Source of the DNA: an uncultured delta proteobacterium
GTDB lineage: Bacteria; Myxococcota_A; Polyangia; Fen-1088
Length of the DNA stretch: 64,000 bases
Direction of reading: 5' to 3'
Assembly: GCA_963758155.1 (NCBI GenBank)
Contig: CAVWUP010000007.1
Span: 12,823 to 76,822, forward strand
A program made the position numbers and the translations under genes. Shown here one piece after another: positions 28,253 through 50,673 of the stretch. The notes under the pieces are model-generated. The model did no database searches and was not told where the DNA came from. It saw only the letters and a list, made by a program, of their open reading frames with translations. Positions within the stretch are counted from its first letter, which is position 1. Each line of letters begins with the position of its first letter.

Positions 28253-28275
28253 GACGTTCTCGATCCACTCTCCAG

Positions 28276-28521
28276 CTAGCGCGGGTGCCGAATCGTAGCA
28301 GATGCCGCCCGGGGCGCAGGTGAAGAACAACCCGCGGAAACATGCTCCCGGATTGCAGCGGGGTCGAAGCGCACCAACGCGCCCACCCGGATGTGGGGCA
28401 GAAGGCCGCATTCGAGCCGGTGGTACACCCAACTCCGCGACACTTTCAGGTATGCAGCCACCTCGGTCACCGTCCACAAGCCGTCGGACACGGGAACGTC
28501 GTTCGTGTTGATCGTGTTCAT
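28276..28521 (-). CDS. xis: excisionase / AlpA-like HTH protein
   Basis: LWTVTEVAAYLKVSRSWVYHRLECGLLPHIRVG HTH, directly upstream of int. Confidence 0.7.
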   Translation of the reverse strand: MNTINTNDVPVSDGLWTVTEVAAYLKVSRSWVYHRLECGLLPHIRVGALVRFDPAAIREHVSAGCSSPAPRAASATIRHPR

Positions 28522-29458
28522 AGTGATCGCCTCGCAATGACAACTCGCGACTCTCGAAGCCGAAGTCGTAGGTGGGGAAACCGCCAGCGGGGCGGCGTGA
28601 GGCCGCCATCAAGCGCCCAATGGCGCGGACACACCGTTCGAGATCCGACTCGGCCGTCCTCTTGTCGTCGAGGCGGATGGTTCCCGAACGCGCTGCCAGC
28701 GCGGGCAAGGCGCATGCCCAGAACCGCCGGACTCGCGAACGCCGCCAGCGGTTTCCCCGTGCAGCCCACCGCAAGACGACCATGCTCCCGCCCGGTGACC
28801 GCACGTCGCTCGATCCGGGCTACTGCCCGGACGCGCGCGTCGTGATGTCCACCGACCTGAAGGCATCCGGAACCGCAACGTGAACCGTTGCCCAGTACGC
28901 CAGCAGTCCCAGTAGGACTACCGCCGCGGTCAATGCCAGGCATTGGGATCCGAATTGCCGCCAAGTCAGCTCTTTTCGATAATGAGTGTGAGGCATAGTA
29001 AGAGCGAGTCCGGCGACTCCGATACCATGCGCGCCACCCGGGCACATGCAGGAGCACGGCGAGTCCGCCGTGGGCTACAGCTTCTGCGGGCGGGCCGGCA
29101 ACGGCCACACACCCGACTCGCGGTCGGACGCCGGCCCAGACTTCGCCAGGACCAGCGGTCCATACGCGGGCGAGGTTCTGGGGGCCTAGTCGCGCTCCGA
29201 TTCCAAAAAGGAATAGGCAGGGATCGCGGTCGGGCGGCGTGAAGCCGGAGCGCGGGCGCTCCCCGCGGTACAGTCCGACGATGCGCGAATTCATCTGGCC
29301 GCTCGGTCCTTTGGCCGGAGGCTCAGCGGGGCGCATCATAGGTCGGATCGTCCGGGCGGACATCCGTCGCTGACCGGGCTCGCGGATCCGACCGCGCTCC
29401 CCTAGGGCCACCATCTCCCGACTGCGATGCGCAACCGCTCCGCTCTTCCCCTTCAGAA

Positions 29459-34600: not shown

Positions 34601-35186
34601 GTGCCGTGTCGGCCGAGTTGAGTAGATCAAGTGCGACGTAGTACCGCCGGCTCGCGTTGCGGCGCGGACCCCACAGCTCCTCGGCCTGACTTTCGAGGTT
34701 CTCGAACACCTCGCCGAATCGGGCCAGACCACCGCTCGCCTGGAAGAGCATCCGCCCGATATCGTCCCTGGCGTCAAGCAACTGTTTACCGCCGTTCACC
34801 AGTCCTGCATGGTCCAGGCTAAACATGCGCTCGAAAAGCGCACGATCGGTGCTGCCAAGGAAGGGCGCCAGCACGGAATCAGCGAGCACACCCTCGCTGT
34901 CGTCGAGCAACGTGTTCTTGATACCCTTGCGCCGCCGGAAGGAGAGTCGCTGATTCCCTTGCTCAAGCACCGCACCGATGCGCATCGACTTGGTATCGTG
35001 GAGAAATGAGTATGGCGTGTTGCCTGCTATGTTGAACAACACGTCGGAGAGGGCCGCACGCGTCGTCGACTTCCCCGCCTCGTTCGGACCGACGACGACG
35101 TGAAAGTCCGGCACGTGCGCCGGAAGTTCAACAACCCGATCGGTGAAGCACCCGTAGCGAGCAAGGTCAAGACGAGCGACGCGCAT
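31686..35186 (-). CDS. SbcC/YhaN-like SMC-family AAA ATPase
   Basis: Walker A GPNEAGKST, about 900 aa of coiled coil, C-terminal signature/Walker B (MSTGTADQLYLALRIA...PFVADDLLAHYD). Confidence 0.85.
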   Translation of the reverse strand: MRVARLDLARYGCFTDRVVELPAHVPDFHVVVGPNEAGKSTTRAALSDVLFNIAGNTPYSFLHDTKSMRIGAVLEQGNQRLSFRRRKGIKNTLLDDSEGVLADSVLAPFLGSTDRALFERMFSLDHAGLVNGGKQLLDARDDIGRMLFQASGGLARFGEVFENLESQAEELWGPRRNASRRYYVALDLLNSADTALRDTIVRAKDFREAERKVQEAEKAVNEGDAELKRLVRQCAHLERVKRVAAALARRTHLREDLTGLARIPLLPETADKQVRDAMTEIALADGACARIAGDLEKAAGRRDTTLVDEGVLALVEDIRASTRERHRLTGHAEGIAKRRAESQQLTMQAGELATRLGWPAGTLAEWRGRIPSELAREDLSHLLGRHAGLAATSVAAGQALAEKRSERRQVALERDPSRDRGSPGSLCDAIAAARKLGDADARRRALETPVATAEKKMRIAFGQLAPWSGDLEALRRIVPPTEEELDAIAERVRRLTKDQEATRSGRAAEAQTLEQRRLQERQVERDEQPVTAEDLAHARARRDENWRLLRSSVEKGVDSTTQPSAARLGEFETLVRDVDLLADRRFDAAEASVTLQQVRADIETCAHRLEAADTRLRELKLEEETALSDLARLQAGFGISLETPAKLRAWIVRREKALDDASVFERARDEVERHDRDVEAAAQGLREALTAAGVADAEVEGRGFAGLVGFADETVRALDDERTRQQALVNQLKSLDQSLPDLEARHGEAERAMVEWQKNLARCLAEFGLPQATEPDVPSRALSLMQDLDGKLREIGSIEKTRIETMLRDLEVFGQEIARLVRAVAPELQGREPMDAARELELRLASAEESKRVRDEAIVRIGDLQDEHRQEVTKRQEAQSRLQPLLESAGVGSLSDLTAAIELSQRRRQLQRELDTTEQHLIETGDGLTLDELVAELAAEDRSLLDLALAKARQDHQDQSDKQKGLVVSLKDAQRELEAIAGQADAATAAAQRNEAIASMTETMERYIRVRVALVLLRWAIERFRREKQGPLLARASGLFSILTLGEFVQLAAELDEKDEPRLAGIRRNSQRVVVGSMSTGTADQLYLALRIAALEMHLESSLALPFVADDLLAHYDNQRAAAAFRVLSDLAMHTQVLFFTHHEHLVAIAQQVLGNGVHVVRLQDA

Positions 35187-35193
35187 TGCAGCC

Positions 35194-36459
35194 TTAGTCA
35201 CCCGCGACACGCGCCACCAAAGCGGGGGCAATCTCTCGAATGATATCGCCGAGCCGATTCTCGCGGATCGCCGAGAGCATCGGGTCTGACGCAGTCCGGA
35301 CCTCGGGCTCTAGCTTGGAGATCATCTCCGCCAGTTCCTCCTCGAGCGCACGCAGGAGGTCAGCATCGCCGGGGGCCTGCTCCAGCATGACGTGGAGATC
35401 AGCAACAGCATCCCCCCGCGCCTCGATTTCCGCCGCGCTCCATGCGGGTTCGGTCGCCAGGCGCAGTTTTTCGATCCACAAGCGCTCCGCGCCGTGTGCG
35501 AGCGCCGCCGCTTGGAGTTCGGCGCGCACGCGCGACTCGGCGCCGAAGAGCTCACCGTGAGCCGCTGTTCTGCCAAACAACGTCACTCGAGCAGCGATTG
35601 GGCGACCGCCAGCCATATCAAGCGCGGTCACGAACCGCGCCTCGGCGCGTGCGATCGCTTCGTTGGCGGTCGCGCAGCCTTGCACGTCGACGCGAATATC
35701 TTCCCAGCGCAGAACGTCTTCGACCAGACGTGACACCGAGACGATCGCGTCTCCGTCGGCCTCGACCAGCATCGCACCTCGCGCACCCGTCTCTCGCACG
35801 TTTCGCCCCTGGAGATTGCCGGGGAACACGACCCAAGGGCGCTCGCATACGATCTCGTACTCGTGCGCGTGACCGAGTGCCCAGTACTCGTACCCTCTGC
35901 CGCGCAAATCGTCGAGATCGCACGGAGCATACGGCTCGTGCCCTTCACGGCCGCCAAGTGCGGTGTGGAGCACACCTATGTTGAGCCAACCAGGAACGCG
36001 CTCCGGGTACTGCTTGACGAGATTCTCGCTGACTGCCCGCTGTCGAAAGCTCTGCCCGTGGATTGCGACGTGTAGGTCGTCGAACTTGATGGTCTCGGCC
36101 TTGCGCGATCCGAATACGTGAACATTGTCCGGCAGACGGAGGCGCAACGATGGACTGAGGTCGCTTTCGGCGTCGTGGTTTCCATAAAGGACGACGACGC
36201 GAATGTTGGCCCCCCGCAGGCGGCCCATCTGCGCGGCAAAGAAGAGCCCCGTGTTGAAGTCTTTCCACGTGCCGTCATACAGGTCACCTGCGATGACCAC
36301 GAAGTCGACTTGTCCAGTGATCGCTTCATCAATCAAACCCTCGAAAGCTCGCCGGGGGGCCGTACGCAGCATGTCGAGCGGAGCCTCCGGGCACGAGCTG
36401 AGTCCGGACAGCGCACTGTCGAGGTGGACATCGGCGGCGTGGATGAATCGGATAGGCAT
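35194..36459 (-). CDS. SbcD/Mre11-like metallophosphoesterase nuclease
   Basis: IHAADVHLD, IAGDLYD, GNHD and ALGHAHE phosphoesterase motifs. Confidence 0.85.
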   Translation of the reverse strand: MPIRFIHAADVHLDSALSGLSSCPEAPLDMLRTAPRRAFEGLIDEAITGQVDFVVIAGDLYDGTWKDFNTGLFFAAQMGRLRGANIRVVVLYGNHDAESDLSPSLRLRLPDNVHVFGSRKAETIKFDDLHVAIHGQSFRQRAVSENLVKQYPERVPGWLNIGVLHTALGGREGHEPYAPCDLDDLRGRGYEYWALGHAHEYEIVCERPWVVFPGNLQGRNVRETGARGAMLVEADGDAIVSVSRLVEDVLRWEDIRVDVQGCATANEAIARAEARFVTALDMAGGRPIAARVTLFGRTAAHGELFGAESRVRAELQAAALAHGAERLWIEKLRLATEPAWSAAEIEARGDAVADLHVMLEQAPGDADLLRALEEELAEMISKLEPEVRTASDPMLSAIRENRLGDIIREIAPALVARVAGD

Positions 36460-36691
36460 TGGTGGGTACCGTCCACGGCACAGCACGCACCAACAGAGTG
36501 AGGGCGCGCTGTCTTGTGGCATGGAAATGCTACACCCTGCGAGCCGGATCGGACGGCAATTTCTCCCGTGACGGGAGCGTTGCTGCCTGTTCGTCGCCAC
36601 CGACGAGTTGCGGATGGGCGGCCGTTCATCGCAGTCACGCCACCCTCGCGCCCCTCGGCCCCCGCGCTTACCTCTCGCGTTTGGGGGCCGC

Positions 36692-37516
36692 TCATCCGAC
36701 GGGCAGAAATGCTGGCCCAGGAAGGCCGAGCGCGTCCGGCAGTGTTCCCCCCTGACGGATTTCGTCCAGCAGGCACATTCGAATCTCCGGCTCGGCCCCA
36801 AGCCCAGACGCGAAGTCCCTGGTGTTGGACAGCCGGCGCTCGCCCTCGGTTACAACCAGCACGACGAGACCGCTCGTGGAGAACAGCGGCATCCCGGCTG
36901 CTCGCGCGCGCACGTAGGCCAGGAGTTTCTGGCGAACCTGGGCTAGTGGCTGCCCGGCGCAGTTGACTTCCCACATGACCAAGCGAACGGCCCCGTCATT
37001 CTCGATCGTCGCGAGGCCATCCGGCACCAGCCGAGCCTCGCGGAACGGCGAGCGATTGGCCAATTCGCCGTCCAGCCTGATGTCTGTCACCGCCAGTAGC
37101 CCGTGCGTCCTGGCGGTCAGGAAAGACACCGCCACGTCCCGAACCGCCACGGCGTGTCCCAGTTTCTGGGACTGGGCGTTCAGCCGATACGGCCTGGTGT
37201 CTTCCGGGGCGAGCCCTTCGTCGCGCAACAAGGTCAGCCCACGCAGGCCGAGCGTCCACACGGTATCGCGATGAAGGGCTCCTCCCTGCAGGTGCGCGCG
37301 CAGGTACCCGTGGTCAAGTAGTGCGCGTAGGCGGCGCTGCGCCCGCCGCCGCGACGGAAATGCTAGACGCTCGATCTGGCATGTCGTCAGGAATCCTGCC
37401 CAACACAGATCCGAGAACAGCGTTCGCTCTCGGCCTGATGGCACCAAGCCGCCCGTGGGCGTGCGCGGGCATGCGCGTTTTGGGAGGCGTGATGCGTTCA
37501 CTCGAACTTCCGCCAT
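36692..37516 (-). CDS. replication-relaxation (Replic_Relax) family protein
   Basis: TLFSDLCWAGFLTTCQIERLAFPSRRRAQRRLRALLDHGYL N-terminal HTH typical of the family. Start uncertain. Confidence 0.65.
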   Translation of the reverse strand: MAEVRVNASRLPKRACPRTPTGGLVPSGRERTLFSDLCWAGFLTTCQIERLAFPSRRRAQRRLRALLDHGYLRAHLQGGALHRDTVWTLGLRGLTLLRDEGLAPEDTRPYRLNAQSQKLGHAVAVRDVAVSFLTARTHGLLAVTDIRLDGELANRSPFREARLVPDGLATIENDGAVRLVMWEVNCAGQPLAQVRQKLLAYVRARAAGMPLFSTSGLVVLVVTEGERRLSNTRDFASGLGAEPEIRMCLLDEIRQGGTLPDALGLPGPAFLPVG

Positions 37517-37833
37517 GGCAGCACCACGGCCAATTCGCACGTCTCACAGGGGAACCAGTCCGCCTCGGAACCACAAATCTCGCAGCGGCCGACCCAGCCA
37601 AGGTACTGGCCGTGGCAGGTCACGCATTCCCAACGCGCAGCTACCGCGTTCGCGTGGCCATTCGGACAAGCGAGAGATGCCGCCCAGAATGCCGGCAGGT
37701 TCTTAAGCCAACGAACGGCCCGCGGAAAAAAAGCCACCGCCACGAACACACCCACGATGGCGAACACGGGCGTCATGATGAGCATTACCCCCACGCGCGT
37801 GACCGAGATGCGCTTTGCCGCGGGCCCCGTCAT
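37498..37833 (-). CDS. membrane-anchored zinc-ribbon protein
   Basis: TM helix, then CPNGH...CVTCHG...CEICG...CETC. ATGA overlap with the upstream ATPase stop. Confidence 0.5.
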   Translation of the reverse strand: MTGPAAKRISVTRVGVMLIMTPVFAIVGVFVAVAFFPRAVRWLKNLPAFWAASLACPNGHANAVAARWECVTCHGQYLGWVGRCEICGSEADWFPCETCELAVVLPWRKFE

Positions 37834-39455
37834 CTTTGCACCCGTGGCCAGCGTGGCGGACCAAGAATTGCCGTCGGATCATCAACGACATCTGTGGTCA
37901 GTGCCGGCGGAGGTAATGGGAGTGGCGGCCTTTCGAGTTCAGCAATGGGAACTGCCGCGCTCCCCACCCTAAGCCGGCGCGCGGTTTCGACGGGCAGAAA
38001 TGCCGGAACTTCAACGTCGACATCGAGAGCACGCACGAGCTGTGCTTTGTACGGAACGCGCCGCTGCCAGAAATAGTAGGTTCGGTCCGGAAGATGTGTG
38101 ACGCCGTCCACGAGCCTAGCCAGTTCTTCCGGCGCGGTCAGGTAGGGGCTCTTTGGTCTCTCTTCCCAGGGCTGGGCTGGCTCGCGCGGGTGGCGACCAG
38201 TCACCGGGAGCATGTGGGCCATGGCCTTGGCGTCCTCGCTTGCCGCCGAGAACAACGCCTGGTGGCTGGTGTTCGTGGCCACGACCTTGGGGAGCGAACT
38301 CGAGATCCTGGCCGCGCCTGCAAGTGACTGGCTGATCAACATGAGCGCGACGCCCCGCGATCTCGCCATTGCCAAGACCCGCTCGTAGTTCTCTGCAGTC
38401 TCGTCGCCAGCGGCCAGACCCTCTTGCCATTCGTCCACTGCCATCAGCACCGGCCGCCCTGCCTCTTCCGGGCTACGTTCGAAGATCGCACGGGTTGTCT
38501 TGAGGGTGATGAGCCCGCCCCACCAGCGCGCAATGTCCTCGCAGCCGAGTGGCGGGTTGCCCAGGTTCGCCACGACGATCTTGTCGCGCATCAGCGAACG
38601 AAAGTCGATGCAGCCGCGTGCCCCCAACATCAAGCGCGTTGCAGGCAGACGCAGCAACCGGCTGAACCGCGCTTGCAGGCCGGCAGCCGAGGTAACCGGG
38701 ACCGGGCGTGCTTCGACGAAGAAACGTCGCACGTCGGCGTTCGGACTCCGCGCGGCCACGGCCGCGCGAGCGGCGGGATCCATGATCAGCGGCACCAGAT
38801 CCGGCAAGCCGAGATGACCGTCGCACACGCCCATCAAGAGCAAACTGAACAAAAGTTGGTCCTGTACGACACCCGTAGGCGCCCTGGTCATCCGCTCGAA
38901 CATCGATGCCACCTCGTAGGCCTGAGCCTCCGGTGGGACGGGGCTGTCGGGCTCACGGGCGAGAACATTGAGGGGCACGAGCCCTCCCTCAGCGAAAGGA
39001 TCGATTACGACCAGAGCGTCTATCAGCCGATTCGCGTGCTGGGGTGGAAGTTGGTCAACGAGTTCCGCGATGAGGTCACGAATCAGGGTGGCCAGATCGC
39101 CCTTGAAGTCTGTGAGGTAGATGCGCGCCGACGACGGTGACAGAACGAACAGTCGCAAGAGTTCCCTGATGATTCCAACCACCAGCCGAGTCTTGCCGGT
39201 TCCTGTGCGTCCCAACACGAGGCCGTGCCCGGCGCCCAGGAGGTCAGGGAGATTCAAGGAAACCGCGAGCGACGGGTCGAGGGCGCTAGTACCGATCCTT
39301 ATGGCCCCCGGCTGCTGGGCCAACCGCTCCATGTCTGTACGGAAGCGTGGATCAATCTGATCCCGCGCTGTGGCCCTCGCCATCGAGGCATTCTCGCGTG
39401 CCCCGGCGACAGCGCGGTCGAGGTCGATCCGACGAAACCAACTCGAAGCACCCAT
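37830..39455 (-). CDS. TraD/TrwB/FtsK-like coupling-protein ATPase
   Basis: Walker A GRTGTGKT, Walker B VLMAVDEWQ. Size and context (Replic_Relax, int) fit a DNA-transfer ATPase. Confidence 0.65.
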   Translation of the reverse strand: MGASSWFRRIDLDRAVAGARENASMARATARDQIDPRFRTDMERLAQQPGAIRIGTSALDPSLAVSLNLPDLLGAGHGLVLGRTGTGKTRLVVGIIRELLRLFVLSPSSARIYLTDFKGDLATLIRDLIAELVDQLPPQHANRLIDALVVIDPFAEGGLVPLNVLAREPDSPVPPEAQAYEVASMFERMTRAPTGVVQDQLLFSLLLMGVCDGHLGLPDLVPLIMDPAARAAVAARSPNADVRRFFVEARPVPVTSAAGLQARFSRLLRLPATRLMLGARGCIDFRSLMRDKIVVANLGNPPLGCEDIARWWGGLITLKTTRAIFERSPEEAGRPVLMAVDEWQEGLAAGDETAENYERVLAMARSRGVALMLISQSLAGAARISSSLPKVVATNTSHQALFSAASEDAKAMAHMLPVTGRHPREPAQPWEERPKSPYLTAPEELARLVDGVTHLPDRTYYFWQRRVPYKAQLVRALDVDVEVPAFLPVETARRLRVGSAAVPIAELERPPLPLPPPALTTDVVDDPTAILGPPRWPRVQR

Positions 39456-39461
39456 GACAGC

Positions 39462-39839
39462 TCACGCCGCGGGTGGATCTCCGTCCTGCGCTTGAGGCAA
39501 GTTCGGCGCGGGCGGCAGCGCGCGGCGACGCACTCGCATTGCCCTCCGATCCCCCTCGCGCCCAGTCGCTCGGGCCTCAAGCCAGGAATAACCGATCAAT
39601 GCCAGCACGACAACCAGGACGAGTAAGGCGATGTCGCCCGTGCCCGGGCCGTCCACGCCCTGCAGAAGCCCCTCGCCATGACAGTCCCGCAGACTCGCGA
39701 AGGTCAGGCCGCAGATCAGGATGACCGCCCCCCACGTCAGGGCATTGGCGGCATCGGTCGGATATCCGAGCCGCCGAACCAAGAACCGACCCACAACCGA
39801 GGCGAGGCCGAGCGCGAGAAGGAAGCCAACGACGATCAT
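39462..39839 (-). CDS. small polytopic membrane protein
   Basis: Three hydrophobic segments. ATGA overlap with the JAB stop. Confidence 0.45.
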   Translation of the reverse strand: MIVVGFLLALGLASVVGRFLVRRLGYPTDAANALTWGAVILICGLTFASLRDCHGEGLLQGVDGPGTGDIALLVLVVVLALIGYSWLEARATGREGDRRAMRVRRRALPPAPNLPQAQDGDPPAA

Positions 39840-40843
39840 GGCTCTGTACACATGGGCAAGTCGCCGGCCATGTCGATCCGCGCGACCTGGCAGATCTCGC
39901 TTTCATTCACGGTTGCGGTTGTGGATTGAAGAGTCGCACCTTCTCCTCGGGCTCGTTCCATGTCCGTGAGCCTGCGTTCAATCTCGACGGTCCTTTCATC
40001 GATCCGGGCCACGTGACCCCAGAGCGCGATGATCGCAAGAAGTGTCAACACCGCAACCGGGGCGGCCAGTTTCGGCCAAACACGGCGCATGGATGGAGCA
40101 GCGCTAGGGGGTGTCGGAATTGCGGCCGGTGGCTTGCTCTCGGTCTCCGGCTCGGCCATCTCCGGGACCTTGGGCTGCGGCCCGAAGGGCTTGAGCATCT
40201 CCCCCTCGGGTCCCCTGTACACCCCCAGCCTGGGCTCACTGAACGGATCGACGACGATGCCGATGGAGTGCGGCTGGGTCCAGGTCGACTGGTTCTTGAA
40301 ATCGGTACTTGAGTAGCGGGCGCCGTAGCGGATGTGACCATGCACCCAGCCCACCGGTATGCAGTCTGGATACAGCAATCGCGCCGCCATGCGGGTCCGC
40401 ATTTCGGAACCGAAGGACGTCCGAACGAATCCGCGCTGCGCGTCCGCTTCCGGATCTGGTACGACACCCAGGATGACGACATGATGTCCGACATCATCTA
40501 GATACACACGGCCGACCAGCAACCCGTACCACTCGCGCGGCGCCGCCTGCTTGCCAAGAACTATCGTTCGTTCCACGACAGACTCGGGAATCGCAACCTC
40601 GAAGCCCGTCGCCCCGCCGTACAAGACGTAGCCCGTTCTAGCTGAATGCCTTGGCGCGCGCCGAACGGGCTCGTCGACGACGCCCACCGGTGTGAAGCTT
40701 GGGACCGATCCGACCGTTCGTATCCGACCAGGCCTTACGGGCGGGGCGCGAAGCAACACAAAAGGATGGCGAGGCTGGACGTGTGGGGCTCTACACGGTG
40801 GAGTATCGGTTCCCAATCCTGATCGACGCGGGACCAACGACAC
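39836..40843 (-). CDS. JAB/MPN (JAMM) metallopeptidase with C-terminal TM helix and coiled coil
   Basis: EWYGLLVG (Glu), GWVHGHIRYGARYSSTD (HxH...S..D). Probable true start near 40620 (GTG/TTG). C-terminal TM (VAVLTLLAIIALWG). Confidence 0.75.
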   Translation of the reverse strand: MSLVPRRSGLGTDTPPCRAPHVQPRHPFVLLRAPPVRPGRIRTVGSVPSFTPVGVVDEPVRRAPRHSARTGYVLYGGATGFEVAIPESVVERTIVLGKQAAPREWYGLLVGRVYLDDVGHHVVILGVVPDPEADAQRGFVRTSFGSEMRTRMAARLLYPDCIPVGWVHGHIRYGARYSSTDFKNQSTWTQPHSIGIVVDPFSEPRLGVYRGPEGEMLKPFGPQPKVPEMAEPETESKPPAAIPTPPSAAPSMRRVWPKLAAPVAVLTLLAIIALWGHVARIDERTVEIERRLTDMERARGEGATLQSTTATVNESEICQVARIDMAGDLPMCTEP

Positions 40844-41352
40844 CGAGAGTGACGGTGAAGTTGGACCTATTGGCAGGCGGCAACTATCCCTTCAGCGATC
40901 CGGCAGCGATATGTCTCGGGGCGCCCCTCCCTTGGTCGCCTCACTTCCACCCCAGCAGCGGCACCGTTTGCCTAGGTGATGCATGGAGAAGCGCTCAGGG
41001 GCGGATGCTGGCCGGACAAATCGTTGTCCACATAATGCGCCTGCTCAACTTCGACGAGCCCGACCAAGAACGATATGGCGGCTGGAATCCGCCAGCGGTT
41101 CGGTACTGGCGATCAATTCTGGGGACCCGGCCACTCCATCCCGATCTGCAGTATCCGGTCTTGCCCGCGGAGGTCACGCATGCACTGTACGACGCGAACA
41201 GCAGATTCCAGCCCATCGGCGACGGCTCCGGAAGTAACAGCTTCGTTGGCGCATCAGTGGCGGCGTTCGCGCCCGCACCACTTGAAGTGATGTTCGTGCC
41301 GGTCGGCGATGCGGATGGCGGAGGCTTCCAACCGCTGGGAGGTGCCCTATGA
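40699..41352 (+). CDS. E2-like ubiquitin-conjugating fold protein
   Basis: HFHPSSGTVCLGDAW resembles the HPN...G.ICLD E2 active site. Start may be GTG near 40787. Confidence 0.6.
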   Translation: MGPIRPFVSDQALRAGREATQKDGEAGRVGLYTVEYRFPILIDAGPTTPRVTVKLDLLAGGNYPFSDPAAICLGAPLPWSPHFHPSSGTVCLGDAWRSAQGRMLAGQIVVHIMRLLNFDEPDQERYGGWNPPAVRYWRSILGTRPLHPDLQYPVLPAEVTHALYDANSRFQPIGDGSGSNSFVGASVAAFAPAPLEVMFVPVGDADGGGFQPLGGAL

Positions 41353-41477
41353 CGATGGACAACGGAATGTTGGATCGTGTGGCGGACGAAAGGAATCGGA
41401 ATGCAGGCCGCACATGACCCTGTAGTCGAATGCGAGGCGCGTGCGCAGGTGCGCGGGGCTGAGCCTGGCCATGTTCG

Positions 41478-41753
41478 TCAAGCTCCGGCGCTGGTCTCAG
41501 TGACCGGCAGATTGTCCCCGTCCTGCACACCGGCGGCGACGAGCGATGAGGATAGCGGAACGGTCGCGCCCGTGCGCTGCAACTGAAGCGCGTAGGCCCT
41601 TGTGGCGCCAGGTGCCTCGATGAAACCCGCCTTGACCAGACCGTCGATCGCCTGCTTCCCGGTGGTGCCGGGGCCCAACTCGGCCTTGAATTCGCGCGAG
41701 TCGCGCGGATGCAAAAAAACTGCGGTGATCTTTCCGTTCGTGGTTGTCGTCAT
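41478..41753 (-). CDS. ubiquitin-like (beta-grasp) small protein
   Basis: 91 aa, 4-nt spacing from the E1 stop. ...VAAGVQDGDNLPVTETSAGA C-terminus. Confidence 0.5.
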   Translation of the reverse strand: MTTTTNGKITAVFLHPRDSREFKAELGPGTTGKQAIDGLVKAGFIEAPGATRAYALQLQRTGATVPLSSSLVAAGVQDGDNLPVTETSAGA

Positions 41754-41757
41754 GTTC

Positions 41758-43032
41758 CTACTCCTGTTTGGTGTCCTCGTTCTTCTCAGTGGCCGAAGTG
41801 GCCCTGGTGTTACGCTCCTGCCTTCGCGTTTCGAACAGGTCGTCGATGTCGCCGGACAACTTCACTGCGTGCAGCTCTCCCGTCGCGCGGTCCTCGATCT
41901 CGAACACGGCCGCGGGCGGAAGGCCAAGCGTGTGACAGCGGCGCTGCACCAGCGAATGGTCGCCGGCCACCGTCGATGCGACCACCATCCCCCGGTCGCC
42001 AAGCTGGGGCAACTCGGGACACTTTGTGCAGCCCGGAGGCTGGTGTACGCCCCAGAGCGGTTTGCCAATCTCTATGGACGCCCCGCATAAGGCGCAGGGC
42101 ATCTCGACAATGAAGGGCGCCGGCAGCTGCACCACGGGCTCGGTCACGAAGGACCGAGCCGCCTCCAGAACAGCACGCAACGGCTCCTCGCAGCGCACAG
42201 CCAGCGGCCGAATTTCTCCGAGACGGCGGTGAACCCCCGGACAGTTTGGATCGGTGGTCAGATGAAGCACTCTGGTTTGGCCGGTGTGGAGATCGAGAAA
42301 GAACGCCTTCCCACCAAGCGGGAACCGCTGGTGGATCGCCTGGATCGCGTGTTCCGCAGCGAGAGCACCCAGGACCGCCGCCAGCGATTGCGTCGCCGGG
42401 ATAGCGCCCGCCTCAGCCACGCGCCGGGCGTACAAGACGCAGGATGCGGCGCCATCCTCAACCTCGGGATTGAGGCACCGCCAGCAGGCCTCGTCACCGA
42501 CGCGATTCGGGAATACAGATACCTGTCCTCGTGATCCGGAGAAACCGAGTTCCACCAGCGGGATACCCAATAAGCGGGTCGCATCGGCCAGTAGCGCACG
42601 GACCCGTAGCGAGTCGACCGCTGCAATCACCACATCAGATCCGACGAGGGCGCCGAGACCGACCTCCTCGAAACGAGCGACCGCGAAACGTACGATGGGA
42701 TCGTCAGCATAGGAGTTGGCTAGCGCGCCCATGGCTGCCTCGCGCGCCTTGAACCGCACCCGCTTGCCCGCCAGACGGCGACGGTCGAAGAGCGGTGATC
42801 TCGTTAGATTGGATGCTTCGACGCTGTCGAAGTCGATCAGTCGAAGCTCATTGACGCCGGCGAGGGCCATCGTCTGGCCCGCGTTGCAACCACCGGCTCC
42901 CAAGCCCACCACCGTGACGATTGCCGATGACATGCGCGCGCGGTCGTAGCCGGCGAGGGTCTCGCGCGAAAACAAGCCGTTGCTAGTGTTGATGTCCATC
43001 ACGTGCCCTCCCGCATATCCAGCACGGAGCAC
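41758..43032 (-). CDS. E1-like ThiF/MoeB-family activating enzyme
   Basis: VTVVGLGAGGCNAGQTMALAGVNELRLIDFDSVEASNLTR Rossmann/ATP motif, CWRC...CxxC zinc site. Start may be MDINTS (42999). Confidence 0.85.
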   Translation of the reverse strand: MLRAGYAGGHVMDINTSNGLFSRETLAGYDRARMSSAIVTVVGLGAGGCNAGQTMALAGVNELRLIDFDSVEASNLTRSPLFDRRRLAGKRVRFKAREAAMGALANSYADDPIVRFAVARFEEVGLGALVGSDVVIAAVDSLRVRALLADATRLLGIPLVELGFSGSRGQVSVFPNRVGDEACWRCLNPEVEDGAASCVLYARRVAEAGAIPATQSLAAVLGALAAEHAIQAIHQRFPLGGKAFFLDLHTGQTRVLHLTTDPNCPGVHRRLGEIRPLAVRCEEPLRAVLEAARSFVTEPVVQLPAPFIVEMPCALCGASIEIGKPLWGVHQPPGCTKCPELPQLGDRGMVVASTVAGDHSLVQRRCHTLGLPPAAVFEIEDRATGELHAVKLSGDIDDLFETRRQERNTRATSATEKNEDTKQE

Positions 43033-43198
43033 CGACTGGGGTTGCCTTATCTGTTTCGACTAGTGAGAAGTCCGACATTGGTTGGAAGCTCGCAGCGCGT
43101 TTTCCCCTTGGCTTGCGAACCGGCGGGGGAGCCGTTGGACGCGCGTCTAATCTTGTGAGGAGAAAACAAAGACCGAGAATGGCGACCAGCCCGTCCAT
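42983..43198 (-). CDS. small membrane protein with C-terminal CWICGR...DGHQH motif (paralog 1)
   Basis: N-terminal TM helix, then a C-x2-C-x6-H-x-H tail. A paralog is adjacent. Confidence 0.4.
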   Translation of the reverse strand: MDGLVAILGLCFLLTRLDARPTAPPPVRKPRGKRAASFQPMSDFSLVETDKATPVGAPCWICGRARDGHQH

Positions 43199-43213
43199 AG
43201 CGATGCCTTTCCA

Positions 43214-43489
43214 TCAATGACGGCAGAAACCGTCGGGTTGCTTGTGGTTGTGACCGTCTGGTGCACTCTTTGAGCGACCGCACACCCAGCAGGGCTGCTC
43301 CCCTGGCCCCGGCCCCATCACCGGTACAAAGGCATCGGGCGACAAGACGCGTCGGCTTCCCCATGTCCTTCTGTGCCGAGCTTCGAGAGGACGGAACGCG
43401 CGGTCCTCGCGATCCCGCAAGAACTTTGAGTATGCCTGCCCGAGCAGGAAGCCACCGATCAGACATGAAATCAGGGCTGCAATTCCCAT
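43214..43489 (-). CDS. small membrane protein with C-terminal CWVCGR...DGHNH motif (paralog 2)
   Basis: Same architecture as 42983-43198. Confidence 0.4.
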   Translation of the reverse strand: MGIAALISCLIGGFLLGQAYSKFLRDREDRAFRPLEARHRRTWGSRRVLSPDAFVPVMGPGPGEQPCWVCGRSKSAPDGHNHKQPDGFCRH

Positions 43490-43610
43490 CGTTGCCCTCC
43501 TACTCGTCTAATGTCCGGAGCGACCTTCTTCGTTACACCTCCACTGGATGCGCACAGCTTGTTGCCAAAACGTGCCCACCGAGGCCAGTATCATGTAGAA
43601 GGTCACCATC

Positions 43611-44522
43611 ATGGCCACGGACGTGAACACCCTTAGCAGGCTCTTGCAGGCGCTCGCAGAGCGCCGGTGGGAGGACGCCGTGACGCTTGGAGCGGCGCTC
43701 GCCAAGCGCGAGGAGCGCCAGGGGCACTTCCAGGCCGCGCGACGGCTTCGCGGCGCGCTGGGTGAGACCGGCAACGGTGACGCGGGCGAAGTACCTTGGC
43801 GCGCCACCGGCGGGGCGCCATCCGCGCTACGAGCGCTGCTTCCGGTCTCGCCGGTCGAGCTTGAACAGGTCGTGCTCCCACGCCACCTGCGCGAACAGCT
43901 CGAAGAACTCGCCCTCGAGTGGCGACTCCACGAGCAGCTTGAGCAGGCCGGCATGGGCAGGCGGCGCAAGCTGCTGTTCGTCGGCCCGCCAGGCTGCGGA
44001 AAAACACTCACCGCACGTGCGCTCGGCGGGATGACTTCCTTGCCGATCCTTGTGGTCCGGTTCGACGCCATCGTGGGGGCGTACCTGGGACAGACCGCCG
44101 CCCAGCTTCGGGAGGTCTTCGCCTACGCCGAGGCGATTCCGTCGGTGTTGGTGCTGGACGAGATCGATGCCCTTGCCCAACGTCGCGGCAACCCGCGCGA
44201 GGTGGGCGAACTCGACCGGGTGGTCATTTCGCTGATGCAGGAGCTTGAGCACGCGTCGCCCCGCGGCTTCGTGGTGGCCAGTTCGAACTTGCCTAGACTC
44301 CTTGACGAGGCCCTTTGGCGCAGGTTCGACCTGGTGCTGTCATTCCCGGCGGCGGCCCGGCGGGACTTGGTCGCCTTCGCTCGGAGCCGCCTCCGCACGT
44401 GGTCGCTCCGCCCGCCGCGCAATCTGCCCGCTATTCTCAAGGGCGCGAACTCCTACGCTGACGTTGACCGCGTGCTAGGCGACCTACGCCGGCGCACGAT
44501 CTTGCGCCAGCACATGGAGTGA
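43611..44522 (+). CDS. AAA+ ATPase
   Basis: Walker A GPPGCGKT, Walker B VLVLDEID, and sensor/arginine-finger region. Confidence 0.85.
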   Translation: MATDVNTLSRLLQALAERRWEDAVTLGAALAKREERQGHFQAARRLRGALGETGNGDAGEVPWRATGGAPSALRALLPVSPVELEQVVLPRHLREQLEELALEWRLHEQLEQAGMGRRRKLLFVGPPGCGKTLTARALGGMTSLPILVVRFDAIVGAYLGQTAAQLREVFAYAEAIPSVLVLDEIDALAQRRGNPREVGELDRVVISLMQELEHASPRGFVVASSNLPRLLDEALWRRFDLVLSFPAAARRDLVAFARSRLRTWSLRPPRNLPAILKGANSYADVDRVLGDLRRRTILRQHME

Positions 44523-44523
44523 G

Positions 44524-46917
44524 ATGGCCGAGATCAGGGCGCCTCGAACCTTTTTCCTGAACGAAGCCCACGAGCACGCGCGGGGCGAGAAGAAGGGTGG
44601 AGGCGGGGTTCCCAAGTACGCCTCGATCAACTGGCAAGCGAAGGGCGAGCGCATCGCCAAATCCCTGAGGGCAGCGCGAACCGCCGTTCGGCAGTCGCCG
44701 GACCCGGTTCGGGAAACTCGCTTCTTCCTGCTTTCGAAGGCCGAGGCCAAGATCGAGAAGTTCTCCACGGACAAACGGAAGTCCAAGGACGGTCGCGTGG
44801 TCGAGGAGATCCACCCGGCCGGTAAGCACGCTGGGATTTTCCAACGGCTGGGGCTCGACCTTCTTGGGGTGACAGACCGGGGAGAAGCCTTGGTGCACGC
44901 CGAGGCCGACAGACTAGATCGCCTGCTCGCAACCGCGGATGCTCTGGGCTCGGCGGGCCCGCGCGAACAAGCCCGATGGGCGCTTCTGTCGGACTTTCAG
45001 CCCGCGCCGCCCGAGACGCGCGCCGACCCCGAGTGGATCTCGTCCATCCCGCTGAAGACAACAGTGGAGGCCATCGTCGAGATTCAACCGCTCCTCCTGC
45101 GCACGGAGGTTGAGGCCGTGGCCAAAGCTCTGCGCGATTCTATCGCCGGCGATGGCCGCCAGGCAGTCCTCGCAGCCGGGCGGGACTTCTCGGGCCGCAG
45201 TTGGTTCCGCATGCGGCTCTTGCGGCAGACCGTGGACGCGTTTGCCAGGCAGTTCCAGTCAATCCAGTCGATCCACCCCCCACTACGGTCGCCCCTGGCT
45301 GCGGTGAACACCAAGGCGCCCGCGGTCGCAGGCGGCGTCGCGGTTCCACCGATCACAGACGCCAATCTTCCGGCGGTCGCCATCGTGGACGCGGGCATTC
45401 CGCAACAACACCCAGTCCTTGCCCGCTATCGGCGAGGACAATTCCTGCATGCGGAAGCAGGACAACCAGGAACCGACGATCACGCCTCGCGAGTCGCGTC
45501 GCGCATCGTTTTTGGGGACGTCGATGCGAGTAGCGCGGGGTATGTGCCGCCACCCGGCCGGTGTCAGTTCCTGGACGTGGTGGTCCCCGCTTTCCCGGGG
45601 AGCATTGGCAAAATCCCCACCATTGATCTCGACAACAAGGCTATCCAGGATGTCATCGGCGACGTCACGCGCAACTACCCCGACGTGCGCGTGTTCGACT
45701 TCAGCTTCGGAAGCCATCAACCCCTGTCGCGGTTGACTGCCGTGCAAAGGCGCGAGGAACTCATTGGGGTCCAGGATCTCGACAACTTCATCTTCGCGAA
45801 CGACGTGCTTGTCGTCGTGGCGGCCGGAAACTCGCCGCGCGGAGCTGTTCCAAACCAGCAGTACCCGGGGCATGTCGACGATCCAGATTGGGGTCTCGGT
45901 GCCTGGGCGTGCGGGTTCAACACGCTGGTCATTGGTTCCTACGTGGGGCAGCCCCACTCAGACGGCCTGGCCGGACACACCGGGTGGCCAAGCCCGTTCA
46001 CCCGCATCGGCCCAGGGTTGGCGGAAGCGCCGGTCCCCAGCTTCTCTGCGAGCGGCGGCGATTCGACGAGGAACTACGGCTACCAAAGCCCGCTGGGGGT
46101 CTGGACCTGCGGACGTACCGGGTTGTGGGAGGATGCCGTTGGAACCTCGTTCGCCGCGCCGATTGTCGCCCGCGAAGCCGCGATCCTTCTCCAGCAACTC
46201 CAGCGGCACTGCGCACCGGGAATCCCGTGCTTCGCAGCGACAGCGAGGGCATTCTTGCGGCTGGTCGCACGGCGATCTGGCGACCAGCCGTTTCCGCCCC
46301 GTGTCCGGAAACTCGCTGACCTGACGCTCGGACACGGACTGCCCACCGCCGAGCGGCTTGCCCGCCCTCGCGCATCGAGCGCAGTGCTCGTTTGGCAGGG
46401 GACTCTGGAAGATCCTGCGTCGATCGCGCGGGTGCGTGTGCCCGTGCCGCTCGCCTGGGTGGCAGCCGCGCAGCACCCCAGCCTGCGGGTCGTCTGTGCC
46501 TGGAATACACCGGTGAGTGCGGCCGCGCCTGATGTCTGGGCCAGCCGCAAGGTGGTCATGCACCTCAAGCCCACGCTCGGAGCGGAGGCGATCCGGGGCA
46601 AGGGCAAGTCCCACAGGAGCTACCCGATCACCGACAGGGTGTGGCGGCTTGATCGGGATGAGGAGGGCGAACCACGGGCCACGCCACCGTCCGACGAGTG
46701 GGTGGTAGAGTTATTCTACGAGGACGTCGGACCCTATCCCGCCACCCTCCAGATCTCGCCTCAGCAGCAAGTTTCGCTGGTGATGGAGCTGTTCGACGAT
46801 TCGAGCACCCCGATCAGTCCCCAGGAGGAATTGCAGAAGCTGCCCATCGCGGAAACGATGATTCGCCTCGCGGGCGTGGCGCGCGAGGTCCAGGTGCCGG
46901 TGAAGATCCGCGTGTAG
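44524..46917 (+). CDS. subtilisin-like (S8) serine peptidase
   Basis: AIVDAGI (Asp), HASRVASRI (His), GTSFAAPIVA (Ser). 1-nt gap after the AAA+ gene. Confidence 0.9.
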   Translation: MAEIRAPRTFFLNEAHEHARGEKKGGGGVPKYASINWQAKGERIAKSLRAARTAVRQSPDPVRETRFFLLSKAEAKIEKFSTDKRKSKDGRVVEEIHPAGKHAGIFQRLGLDLLGVTDRGEALVHAEADRLDRLLATADALGSAGPREQARWALLSDFQPAPPETRADPEWISSIPLKTTVEAIVEIQPLLLRTEVEAVAKALRDSIAGDGRQAVLAAGRDFSGRSWFRMRLLRQTVDAFARQFQSIQSIHPPLRSPLAAVNTKAPAVAGGVAVPPITDANLPAVAIVDAGIPQQHPVLARYRRGQFLHAEAGQPGTDDHASRVASRIVFGDVDASSAGYVPPPGRCQFLDVVVPAFPGSIGKIPTIDLDNKAIQDVIGDVTRNYPDVRVFDFSFGSHQPLSRLTAVQRREELIGVQDLDNFIFANDVLVVVAAGNSPRGAVPNQQYPGHVDDPDWGLGAWACGFNTLVIGSYVGQPHSDGLAGHTGWPSPFTRIGPGLAEAPVPSFSASGGDSTRNYGYQSPLGVWTCGRTGLWEDAVGTSFAAPIVAREAAILLQQLQRHCAPGIPCFAATARAFLRLVARRSGDQPFPPRVRKLADLTLGHGLPTAERLARPRASSAVLVWQGTLEDPASIARVRVPVPLAWVAAAQHPSLRVVCAWNTPVSAAAPDVWASRKVVMHLKPTLGAEAIRGKGKSHRSYPITDRVWRLDRDEEGEPRATPPSDEWVVELFYEDVGPYPATLQISPQQQVSLVMELFDDSSTPISPQEELQKLPIAETMIRLAGVAREVQVPVKIRV

Positions 46918-48421: not shown

Positions 48422-49144
48422 ATGGAGCATAGGAAGGAGAACCTTCACGCGGGTCATCGGGCACGCTTGCGAAGGCGCTTTCTCGATGAGGGGCTCGACG
48501 CCTTCGAGGACCACCAGGTCCTCGAGCTGCTCCTGTTCTTCGCCATTCCCCGTCGGGACACCAACGAACTCGCCCATCTCCTGCTGCGCCGCTACGGCTC
48601 CTTCTCTGCCGTGCTCGATGCCGACCCCGTCGATTTTGCGCAGACTGAGGGGGTTGGCGAGGCTGCGGCGACGCTGCTGTCGCTCGTGCCCGCCCTGACT
48701 CGGCGGTACTCGATGGATCGCACGCGCCAAGAGCGGCAAACGCTGAACACGAGCGAGCGGGCAGCCGAGTTCCTCGTGCCCCTTATGGCTGGCAGGAGCG
48801 AGGAGGTCTTCTACATCGTCTGCCTCGATACCCAGTGCCGGGTGATCGTCCCTGCTCTCGTTGTTGAGGGGCTGCCTGATCGCGCCCACATTGAGCCGCG
48901 CCAGGCGGTCGAGGTGGCTTTGCGCCACAAGGCACACTCGGTGATCCTGGCGCACAACCACCCCACTGGGCAGGCCAAGCCCACGACGGCCGATCACCGG
49001 GCCACCCAAACGCTCGTCAGCGCATTCGGCGCAATTGCCATCGTCGTCCGGGACCACATCATCGTGGCGGGGGAAGATTGGTACAGCTTCTCTCGTGCAG
49101 GCGACATGCCAGCTGCAAAACCAACGGGAGCACTGAACCCATGA
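48422..49144 (+). CDS. radC: RadC-like JAB domain protein (UPF0758)
   Basis: HNHPTGQAKPTTADHRAT JAMM motif with the RadC N-terminal HhH-like region. Confidence 0.85.
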   Translation: MEHRKENLHAGHRARLRRRFLDEGLDAFEDHQVLELLLFFAIPRRDTNELAHLLLRRYGSFSAVLDADPVDFAQTEGVGEAAATLLSLVPALTRRYSMDRTRQERQTLNTSERAAEFLVPLMAGRSEEVFYIVCLDTQCRVIVPALVVEGLPDRAHIEPRQAVEVALRHKAHSVILAHNHPTGQAKPTTADHRATQTLVSAFGAIAIVVRDHIIVAGEDWYSFSRAGDMPAAKPTGALNP

Positions 49145-50673
49145 AGCTCACGGACGCGCAGAAACGGGCCGTCGCGCACGCGAAGGCCAACTTGCAGCTC
49201 ATTGCTTGCGCCGGCTCGGGCAAGACGGAGGTCGTGGCCCGTTTCGTGGCGAACCTCCTCAACCCGAGGACCAAGCCGAGGGTCGTACCAGCGAACATCA
49301 TAGCGTTCACGTTCACCGAGAAGGCGGCTGCTGAGCTGAAAGAACGAATCGTGACGAGGTGTCGGGAGGAGAATGGGGATCAACCGGGACTCGCCGAACT
49401 CTATGTCGGCACCATCCACGCCTTCTGCCTGGATCTTCTCAAGACCGAAGTGCCGCGCTTCCTCAAGTTCGAGGTGCTGAATGAGGTCCAGCAGGCTCTC
49501 TTTGTCGACCGGCACAGCAAGCAGAGCGGTCTCACGACGACCACCGACCTGACAGGTCGAGTTCTTCAGCGCTACAAGGACACCGATCTCTACGTTGCCG
49601 CGCTGTCGATCCTCCGCGAGGCCCAGCTCGACGACGAAGTTCTGCGCGGCAACTCGGTCGTCACAGGTCTTAGCGCCTACAAGGCACTGCTGACCAAGGA
49701 AGACTCGTTCGATTACTCGTCGATCCTCGGCGAGGCTGTTTGCGCACTTCGAGACGATGCGGGACTGCGCGATCGGATGCGCGACCGCGTCCGCTACGTC
49801 ATCGTGGACGAGTACCAGGACGTGAACCCGATCCAGGAATGCATCGTCAAGCTGCTGCACGACTTGGGTGCGTATGTCTGCGTGGTGGGCGATGACGACC
49901 AGACCATCTACCAGTGGCGAGGCAGCGACGTCCGCAACATCCTCAACTTCGAGAAGCGCTACCCAAAGCCGAAGCAGATCCGGCTTGAGGAGAATTTCCG
50001 TTCCAGCGAGGGGATCGTCGAGACCGCACGGGACTTCATCAGCAAAAACGCCGAACGCCTTCCCAAGGCGATGAAACCAACGGATGTTCAGCCCTACGAG
50101 GCCGGCGACATCATCGCGCTCGCCTTGGCCGATCCGGACGCGGAGGCGCAGCACATCGCCGCGAGCATCAAGGCTCTTCGCGGTGTCGCCTTCAAGGAGG
50201 ACGACGCCAAGCGGGGCTTGGCTTGGTCGGATATGGCCATCCTCTTGCGAAGCGTCCGCAACAGCGCCGATCCGATCACGCGTGCGCTCTCGGCGGCAGG
50301 CATCCCTTTTGTCATCGGCGGGATGAACGATCTCTTTTCTCGGGCCGAGGCCGAGGCGGCGCGGCAGCTCTTCTACTTCATTCGCGGACGCATCGACGAG
50401 GCTGCACTGATCGCTGCCTGGAAAGCGGCGGCGCTCGGTGTCTCGAAGCGGGCAATCGACCAGGCAGTCGCGGGCGCCAAGGCCACCAAAGAAGCTCTCG
50501 ATGGAACGGACGAGAACCGCTGGAGCTATTACTCCCTGCAACGGCAGTTCCTCACCTTCCTCGAGGATTTGGAGCTGCGCGAGGAGTCGGTCCCGGACGG
50601 TCGCGGCGAGGTTGTCTTCTACAACCTCGGCAAGTTCAGTCAGCTCATCTCGGACTTCGAGACCATCCACTAA
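49141..50673 (+). pseudogene. UvrD/Rep-type SF1 helicase, C-terminally truncated
   Basis: IACAGSGKTEV (Walker A), VIVDEYQD, GDDDQTIYQWRG. Ends after about 510 aa, exactly where a transposase fragment begins. Confidence 0.7.

Follow-up and report, generated by a model that had tools for sequence, protein, structure and literature searches.

In a 64,000-nucleotide stretch of contig CAVWUP010000007.1 from an uncultured delta proteobacterium (hereafter the window, whose full length supplies all coordinates below except those given for other loci), two adjacent small genes, mini1 and mini2, encode members of a previously undescribed family of small proteins. One or two genes of this family head a conserved cassette that further encodes an E1-like activating enzyme, a ubiquitin-like protein (Ubl), a UBC-like E2 and a JAB peptidase, and is carried by integrative mobile elements of Myxococcota. 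Comparative sequence analysis of related loci shows that mini1 and mini2 are real protein-coding genes that evolve under purifying selection in synteny with E1, and that a short motif, F-x-P-phi, is common to the mini-proteins, the E2 and the JAB peptidase and co-varies among them. We propose, with a probability that we put at about 0.45, that the mini-proteins are membrane-anchored, cytoplasm-facing tethers or adaptors, i.e., E3-like accessory proteins that would hold E1 or the Ubl at the membrane through this docking motif and a predicted zinc knuckle.

A small-protein family encoded upstream of E1

The two open reading frames (ORFs) lie next to each other on the minus strand, which is the strand of the operon, and are 15 nt apart: mini1 (P0001; 43214..43489) encodes 91 amino acids (aa) and mini2 (42983..43198) encodes 71 aa, each from an ATG. 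The original prediction, made from the window sequence, had described exactly these tandem ORFs as paralogues at the head of the E1 operon and on the same strand, and all of this stands (BLASTP of mini1 against mini2, E=8e-7, 28% identity over 68 residues). A Shine-Dalgarno (SD) sequence, AGGAGGG (43495..43501, minus strand), precedes the mini1 ATG by 5 nt, and a core SD is present in 14 of 29 family members. The stop of mini2 overlaps the start of E1, most plausibly the ATG at 42999, such that the final 17 nt of mini2 are shared with E1 in a different frame and its G-R-A codons (GGG AGG GCA) are also the E1 ribosome-binding site; among mini2-type members in general, the overlap between the stop and the E1 ATG is 17-20 nt. 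A scan of positions 39000-45000 against Rfam detected no RNA families, and a promoter scan gave no match to a sigma-70-type site; two hairpins that weakly resemble terminators were judged to be chance occurrences.

The window sequence alone would not prove that these ORFs are coding because the GC signal by codon position is weak (0.64/0.55/0.64 in mini1 and 0.64/0.56/0.53 in mini2, compared with third-position GC, GC3, of 0.67-0.82 in the neighbouring genes). An alignment of E1 homologues was used to retrieve 50 loci from collections of genomes and metagenomes. The presence of homologues at equivalent loci, proposed originally as a check on the two genes, was found throughout: wherever the E1 is at least 42% identical and upstream DNA is available, one or two mini ORFs immediately precede E1 on the same strand. 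This applies to 25 of 25 distinct loci (E1 42-85% identical), all of them from Myxococcota metagenome-assembled genomes (MAGs) or environmental contigs. The ratio of nonsynonymous to synonymous substitution rates (dN/dS) is 0.18-0.54 across ten divergent gene pairs (0.28-0.37 for mini1 against loci L001 and L020, and 0.18-0.41 for mini2); among the further pairs, two are saturated, and a near-identical one yields 0.70 from 15 substitutions. Substitutions at codon positions 1/2/3 number 128/104/203 (chi-square p=1e-8), an excess at third positions. The reading frames remain open across indels, which are in frame and reach 18 codons. Moreover, a hidden Markov model (HMM) of the C-terminal module scores the mini ORFs at 33-59 bits, with lower values for four truncated or variant tails, and yields no other match above ~13 bits among 9,634 six-frame segments.

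These observations bear directly on the notion that the ORFs are non-functional, namely, that they occur by chance or are upstream ORFs serving only the translational coupling of E1. The weak GC3 signal, the consistent failure of gene finders to call mini2 and the overlap of the mini2 tail with the SD and start of E1 would all fit such a notion. Nevertheless, we consider it hardly credible, given dN/dS below 1 in 11 scorable pairs (including all but the two saturated ones), the substitution bias at third positions, the preservation of four metal ligands through ligand swaps, and the retention of the F-x-P-phi motif in members whose ORF stops 16-235 nt short of E1 and is thus free of any overlap constraint.

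With respect to its distribution, the family is sparsely represented in protein databases. Against 5.8 billion protein clusters, mini1 retrieved only itself and P0002 (49% identical), whose gene immediately precedes a ThiF gene in four contigs; both P0002 and a further mini1 homologue, P0073, are located upstream of E1. In the P0002 contigs, what appears as a gap is filled by an uncalled 70-aa homologue of mini2 that likewise overlaps E1, and uncalled mini2 homologues are also present in L001, L005, L019-L023 and other loci; mini2 itself is missing from the 5.8-billion-protein collection. A HMMER scan of 1.84 billion representatives with a 3-sequence profile recovered only three true members, all labelled 'hypothetical protein'. 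The tandem pair results from a duplication limited to a clade of seven loci in which E1 is at least 72% identical; one of these (L021) has a single mini copy, as do the loci outside the clade. Sequence and profile searches of the mini-proteins against Pfam, NCBIfam, PADLOC and PDB returned nothing significant, relatives of the E1 are absent from IMG/VR and PLSDB, and neither the mini-proteins nor the cassette was found described in the literature covered, to which Burroughs et al. (2011) did not belong.

Predicted membrane helix and zinc knuckle, and the F-x-P-phi motif

The full-length members (n=27, 69-165 aa) consist of an N-terminal hydrophobic helix, a linker and a Cys/His-rich tail. A hydrophobic run of 12-27 uncharged residues (median 17), starting at residue 1-11, is present in all 27. 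In mini1, it spans residues 1-21 (43427..43489, minus strand; 17 uncharged residues, Kyte-Doolittle mean of 2.37 in a 15-aa window), and the AlphaFold2 (AF2) model bears out the anticipated N-terminal helix at residues 2-31 with a predicted local distance difference test score (pLDDT) of ~88 (range 87-90), beyond which confidence is low (46-59) and the protein appears mostly disordered. The corresponding segment of mini2 comprises only residues 3-15 (13 aa; 43154..43192, minus strand) and is a putative anchor, less certain than that of mini1. The charge on the N side of the run is zero or negative, and the 15 residues C-terminal of it are mostly positive; given the positive-inside rule, this pattern suggests an N-out/C-in topology with a cytoplasmic tail. 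A signal peptide was considered and rejected because of the Cys/His site in the tail and an n-region that is neutral or acidic. At most ~10 residues would lie outside the membrane, which makes one of the roles originally entertained for these proteins, that of membrane sensors, unlikely as far as a signal from outside is concerned.

The tail of mini1 (P66-H91; 43217..43294, minus strand), PCWVCGRSKSAPDGHNHKQPDGFCRH, contains six Cys/His residues, with the principal ligands arranged as C67-x2-C70-x9-H80-x-H82 and an additional Cys and His following, and that of mini2 (P58-H71; 42986..43027, minus strand), PCWICGRARDGHQH, contains four, arranged as C59-x2-C62-x6-H69-x-H71; the DNA of the latter includes the E1 SD (GGGAGGG) and the E1 ATG. 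The family consensus, P-C-[WRFH]-[VI]-C-G-[RK]-(P)-x(2-5)-G-[DEH]-H-x-H, is located at the C-terminus or within ~4 residues of it. Thus, of the motif originally read from the two copies, the core C-x2-C-G-[RK]...H-x-H is conserved, whereas the literal DGH[NQ]H is not. In a 25-sequence alignment, C-x2-C-G is invariant, and the second ligand pair varies among H-x-H, H-x2-C (L031), C-x4-C (L034) and C-x-H (the mini1 of L020, where Y/P in place of H-x-H is offset by the downstream C-x-H); the mini1 clade has an additional D-G-F/V-C-x-H. At least four Cys/His residues are kept in all 30 tails examined (mini2 type, four; mini1 clade, 4-6), forming two close pairs of interchangeable identity, as is typical of structural zinc knuckles. 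Because at least four ligands persist through CCHH/CCHC/CCCC swaps, the tail, already suspected of binding metal, is predicted to form a structural zinc site, most likely a four-ligand knuckle.

The linker carries one to three F-x-P-[LIVM] motifs per protein, 30 in total compared with 1.7 +/- 1.3 in shuffled sequences (maximum 8 in 2,000 shuffles). A proximal copy is located 12-21 residues before C-x2-C, and usually there is a second one nearer the membrane. In mini1, the distal and proximal motifs are F32-R-P-L35 (43385..43396) and F54-V-P-V57 (43319..43330), the latter 13 residues before C-x2-C; mini2 has F38-Q-P-M41 (43076..43087) and, 15 residues before C-x2-C, F44-S-L-V47 (43058..43069), which reads F-S-P-L/V in orthologues (all minus strand). 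In 20 of 21 loci, the JAB peptidase begins with the same motif, in the form [DES]-x-F-x-P-[LIV]-G-x-V-x-E-P-V (S-F-T-P-V-G-V-V-D-E-P in the window, 40667-40699, minus strand). Furthermore, the E2 tail past the UBC core contains 1-4 copies, the last at the very C-terminus (24 observed against 4.0 +/- 1.9 expected); in the window these are FQPIG (41206-41217), FVPVG (41293-41304) and FQPLGGAL* (41326-41337), all on the plus strand, the coordinates covering FQPI, FVPV and FQPL. The motif is not enriched in E1, the Ubl, or two other cassette proteins, p541 and p112. In three loci, the JAB motif lacks Pro (FRALG in L036 and L038, FRIIE in L010), and the E2 tails and mini-proteins of these loci lack it likewise: Pro occupies 2 of 14 Phe sites there, compared with 73 of 117 elsewhere (Fisher p=0.0009, not phylogeny-corrected).

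Given that E1 and the Ubl are the core components without the motif, the receptor of the motif should be one of these two, most probably a beta-grasp module, i.e., the C-terminal UFD-like domain of E1 or the Ubl itself. The E1 (413 aa; 41758..42999, minus strand; Pfam ThiF, 5e-30) has a single MoeB/ThiF-like adenylation domain, and MoeB is its closest sequence match in PDB. In its AF2 model (pLDDT 88.9; Foldseek top matches UBA3, which has a UFD, MoeB and ThiF), a beta-hairpin bearing the invariant C302/C305/C324/C327, the zinc ribbon, lies between the adenylation domain and the C-terminal alpha/beta domain; an invariant Cys187 lies in a low-confidence crossover loop. The Ubl (91 aa; 41478..41753, minus strand; weak YukD match, E=0.0018) ends in ...TSAG-A, and in nearly all loci the end is ...S-A-G-A plus 0-7 residues; because the conserved Gly is followed by 1-7 extra residues, the Ubl is predicted to be a precursor cleaved after this Gly. 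The E2 profile matches UBE2K, UBC9 and others (E=0.002), with an invariant Cys aligned to the UBC catalytic Cys. The two hallmarks of a canonical thioester E1-E2 cascade, a UBC-type E2 with a Cys aligned to the catalytic one and a Ubl with a C-terminal Gly, are both present. Apparent natural fusions of a mini-protein with E1 were examined and rejected, the long E1 calls having out-of-frame N-terminal extensions that offer no Rosetta-stone evidence.

The nature of these core components also bears on the idea that the mini-proteins are precursors akin to ribosomally synthesized and post-translationally modified peptides (RiPPs), with the E1-like enzyme adenylating their C-terminus as MccB does with MccA. 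The fact that the small ORFs immediately precede the gene of a ThiF-like enzyme, the presence of MccB and PaaA among the Foldseek matches of the E1, and a weak TOMM-docking match (thiazole/oxazole-modified microcin) are compatible with it. However, the cassette encodes a Ubl of its own that has a conserved Gly at the C-terminus, along with a Cys E2 and a JAB; the mini-proteins are 69-165 aa long and start with a predicted membrane helix that is not leader-like; and, since 0-9 variable residues follow the last metal ligand, their C-terminal carboxylate is not positioned. We regard such a role as very improbable.

Candidate roles in Ubl conjugation

The tether or adaptor role that we favour could operate as follows. 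The N-terminal helix would anchor the mini-protein, with the rest of the molecule facing the cytoplasm; the linker motifs and the zinc knuckle would dock the common receptor of the motif at the inner membrane; and this docking would localise or gate Ubl conjugation. Tethers or adaptors are the most likely assignment because the E2 and JAB carry the motif of the mini-proteins whereas E1 and the Ubl do not, and localisation or gating would follow from membrane docking because several other cassette products, namely JAB, p125, p112 and an FtsK/HerA-like ATPase, are also at the membrane. The translational coupling with E1 and the position equivalent to that of RING-like proteins in other operons (see below) provide supporting context. 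Thus, among the roles suggested originally, that of a regulator, here an adaptor, gains support from the docking motif common to the mini-proteins, the E2 and JAB.

By tblastn, the order of the cassette is mini(s)-E1-Ubl-E2-JAB-p125-p541-p112-Replic_Relax. JAB (39836..40699, minus strand; Pfam Prok-JAB) has a C-terminal transmembrane (TM) helix, after which comes a coiled-coil-like tail containing two Cys. The last four genes occupy 36692..39839 (minus strand). Of their products, p125 has three hydrophobic, presumably TM, segments, and p541 (37830-39455, minus strand) is an FtsK/HerA/EccC-like P-loop ATPase with weak matches to EccC/FtsK (3.5e-8) and to PADLOC mad8 (3e-13). The weak YukD match of the Ubl and the EccC/FtsK match of p541 faintly echo the pairing of YukD with an FtsK-like ATPase in type VII secretion loci. 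The conserved p112 (37498-37833, minus strand; 15704-16042 in L001) lacks a Pfam match; in it, a hydrophobic helix precedes CPNGH-x9-CxxCH-x10-CxxC-x8-CxxC (8-9 Cys/His). The protein may represent a binuclear, RING-like finger anchored in the membrane and, as such, the real E3 candidate of the cassette.

A bolder version of the adaptor hypothesis, to which we give a modest chance, holds that F-x-P-phi(-G) constitutes a short-linear-motif 'code', the first in any bacterial ubiquitin-like system. The motif, similar to the LC3-interacting region (LIR) and SUMO-interacting motif (SIM), would bind a beta-grasp module (the Ubl or the UFD-like domain of E1) and be used alike by the E2, JAB and the mini-proteins, the latter being membrane receptors that would concentrate Ubl conjugation beside the FtsK/HerA-type ATPase of the mobile element.

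The sharing of the motif with the E2 and JAB also implies rivalry for one site, and the mini-proteins could accordingly be regulatory subunits or competitors that occupy the docking site of these enzymes and hold E1 or the Ubl inactive at the membrane until a redox or metal change, or a signal of infection or transfer, releases it. C-x2-C zinc sites are common redox switches, and the position of the mini genes at the head of the operon, translationally coupled to E1, would suit a regulatory subunit. We nevertheless deem this unlikely: the mini-proteins have no domain able to receive a signal, and the available observations do not favour inhibition over recruitment. Another role initially suggested, that of targets of the pathway, fares worse. 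Although a long disordered cytoplasmic tail beside the enzymes would be accessible to Ubl attachment, Lys is not conserved in the mini-proteins, being entirely missing from 9 of the 29 tabulated sequences (e.g., the mini2 of L005), and what is conserved is a docking motif and a predicted metal site rather than an acceptor residue; it is therefore improbable that the mini-proteins themselves are the Ubl acceptors.

Related operons invite comparison of the mini-proteins with E3 ligases. In a sister operon (5583-8934 in L049, and also in L017, L046 and L054; Chthonomonadaceae-type), the order is RING-like-E1-Ubl-E2-JAB; p125, p541 and p112 are missing, the Ubl ends in GG plus an extension, and Y-x-P motifs are found in the E2 tail and at the N-terminus of JAB. 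The RING-like zinc-finger protein in the mini position of L049 contains CPVT...C..C...W...C..CG preceded by DFEPIG, an instance of the D-F-x-P-phi motif shared with the mini-proteins, with a weak Rtf2-RING match (E=0.098) as its sole hit in Pfam. More distant E1/JAB loci, in Armatimonadota and others (L016, 2578-3488; L045, 9421-10149), encode proteins with a Prok-RING_1 domain, a zinc ribbon and C-terminal TM helices, which match PF14446 at 2e-10 to 7e-7 and served as a positive control. By analogy, the knuckle could be a reduced RING-like module of a minimal E3 ligase that binds E2~Ubl and chooses membrane-proximal substrates. Consistent with this are the equivalent position of the RING-like protein upstream of E1 in L049, L046 and L017, the TM-anchored Prok-RING_1 proteins of the distant operons, and the mention, in a review (PMC11354881, citing Burroughs 2011), of bacterial RING versions with only two ligand pairs. 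However, the mini-proteins have four ligands instead of eight, none of 25 matches RING profiles (PF14446 and others) at E<=5, and an hhalign comparison with the RING-like sister family gives a probability of 1.4%, which is not significant. The better E3 candidate in the cassette is p112, which makes a true E3 role for the mini-proteins uncertain and, in our assessment, quite unlikely.

Several observations weigh against the proposed tether or adaptor role as well. The 13-residue hydrophobic segment of mini2 is short for a TM helix; the predicted zinc knuckle does not significantly resemble any known finger, RING and UBZ included; p112, with its 8 Cys/His ligands, is a better RING-like candidate; and the covariation of the motif comes from three loci only, two of them possibly related, and is not corrected for phylogeny. 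Moreover, a segment of ~700 bp in the window (40693-41392) is inverted relative to all ~25 related loci. It carries codons 27-243 of E2 and the first ~14 codons of JAB, such that the E2 body is now encoded on the plus strand (40699..41352), codons 1-26 of E2 are orphaned on the operon strand (41395..41472, minus strand), and the native JAB start has been removed. The ends of the inversion show microhomology of just 2-4 nt (AAGCTT/CTT) and lack inverted repeats. Three other contigs (an NCBI MAG contig and two Logan assemblies), from at least two sequencing runs, contain this arrangement with at least 99.98% identity; because it is reproduced in different runs, it is unlikely to be an assembly artefact and is probably real. 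The pathway may thus be impaired, rewired or inactive in this strain; the mini genes are intact despite the inversion.

Genomic context and comparison with known systems

The surroundings of the cassette look like an integrative mobile element or defence island loaded with defence genes. On the plus strand, an antiphage pair composed of IetA (AAA ATPase, PADLOC 1e-61) and IetS (S8 peptidase, 1e-30) at 43611-46917 diverges from the mini-E1 operon across an intergenic region of 121 nt. Other neighbours (26864-28804, 31686-36801 and 48422-50673) encode a tyrosine integrase, an SbcC-like AAA_27 protein with an SbcD-like phosphoesterase, RadC and a UvrD-type helicase.

Bacterial Ubl conjugation, as in Cap2/3 of CBASS (cyclic oligonucleotide-based antiphage signalling system), Bil and Bub, is an active field of research, the choice of substrates and location included. 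The cassette described here differs from the described families in its MoeB-like E1 with a UFD-like domain, canonical-looking UBC E2, pro-Ubl, membrane-anchored JAB and unannotated mini-proteins. Zinc-binding accessory proteins are a known theme in prokaryotic Ubl operons; the mini family is new, and the shared docking motif was unanticipated. The co-varying motif of the E2, JAB and mini-proteins offers a concrete, testable handle on the wiring and localisation of such a system. Furthermore, mini2 illustrates that small ORFs overlooked by gene callers can be integral to Ubl operons.

With respect to known accessory proteins, the closest parallels are Prok-RING_1 (PF14446) and the RING protein of the Caldiarchaeum subterraneum ubiquitin operon (PMC3082918, PMC5654768), which are likewise small zinc-binding proteins encoded beside E1, zinc binding being a prediction in the case of the mini-proteins. 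However, the RING cross-brace comprises eight ligands and two zinc ions, compared with a single four-ligand knuckle in the mini-proteins, which are mostly disordered and have no sequence or profile similarity to RING proteins; in addition, the predicted TM helix of the mini-proteins is N-terminal, whereas that of the membrane-anchored Prok-RING proteins of L016 and L045 is C-terminal.

The ISG15-like antiphage system Bil, which consists of the four genes bilA-D (PMC10557695; bioRxiv 10.1101/2023.09.04.556158), resembles the cassette in having separate genes for Ubl, Cys E2, JAB and E1, a precursor Ubl cleaved after Gly, and a context of defence islands or mobile elements. In contrast to the 413-aa MoeB-like E1 of the cassette, the Bil E1 is a fusion of inactive with active adenylation domains; the gene order also differs, and Bil has neither membrane components nor a mini-protein. 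With its different E1 and the additional mini-proteins, p125, p541 and p112, the cassette falls outside Bil, and PADLOC yields only weak Cap2-type matches for it. Similarly, Bub (6E/DUF6527; PMC11601596) couples Ubl conjugation to a zinc accessory, BubE, with a C4 site and a hydrophobic extension. Bub is nevertheless distinguished by Ser/Tyr oxyesters and fused proteins, whereas the E2 of the cassette has an invariant Cys and DUF6527 is missing, and BubE is a beta-sandwich serine protease, whereas the mini-proteins have no fold. More generally, the cassette differs from types 6a-6e when compared with their descriptions.

As for the docking motif, a possible parallel is offered by eukaryotic Ubl systems, in which the LIR, also known as the Atg8-interacting motif (AIM), and the SIM have an aromatic-x-x-aliphatic core that lies in disordered regions and in many cases comes after acidic residues. 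In the Atg8 system, Atg3, Atg4 and the receptors all bear LIR-type motifs. The cassette motif would resemble LIR/AIM in this core and in its spread over a conjugating enzyme (E2), a processing protease (JAB) and what we predict to be membrane-bound adaptors, and is set apart from LIR and SIM by a strong preference for Pro at +2, which is present at 62% of the Phe sites.

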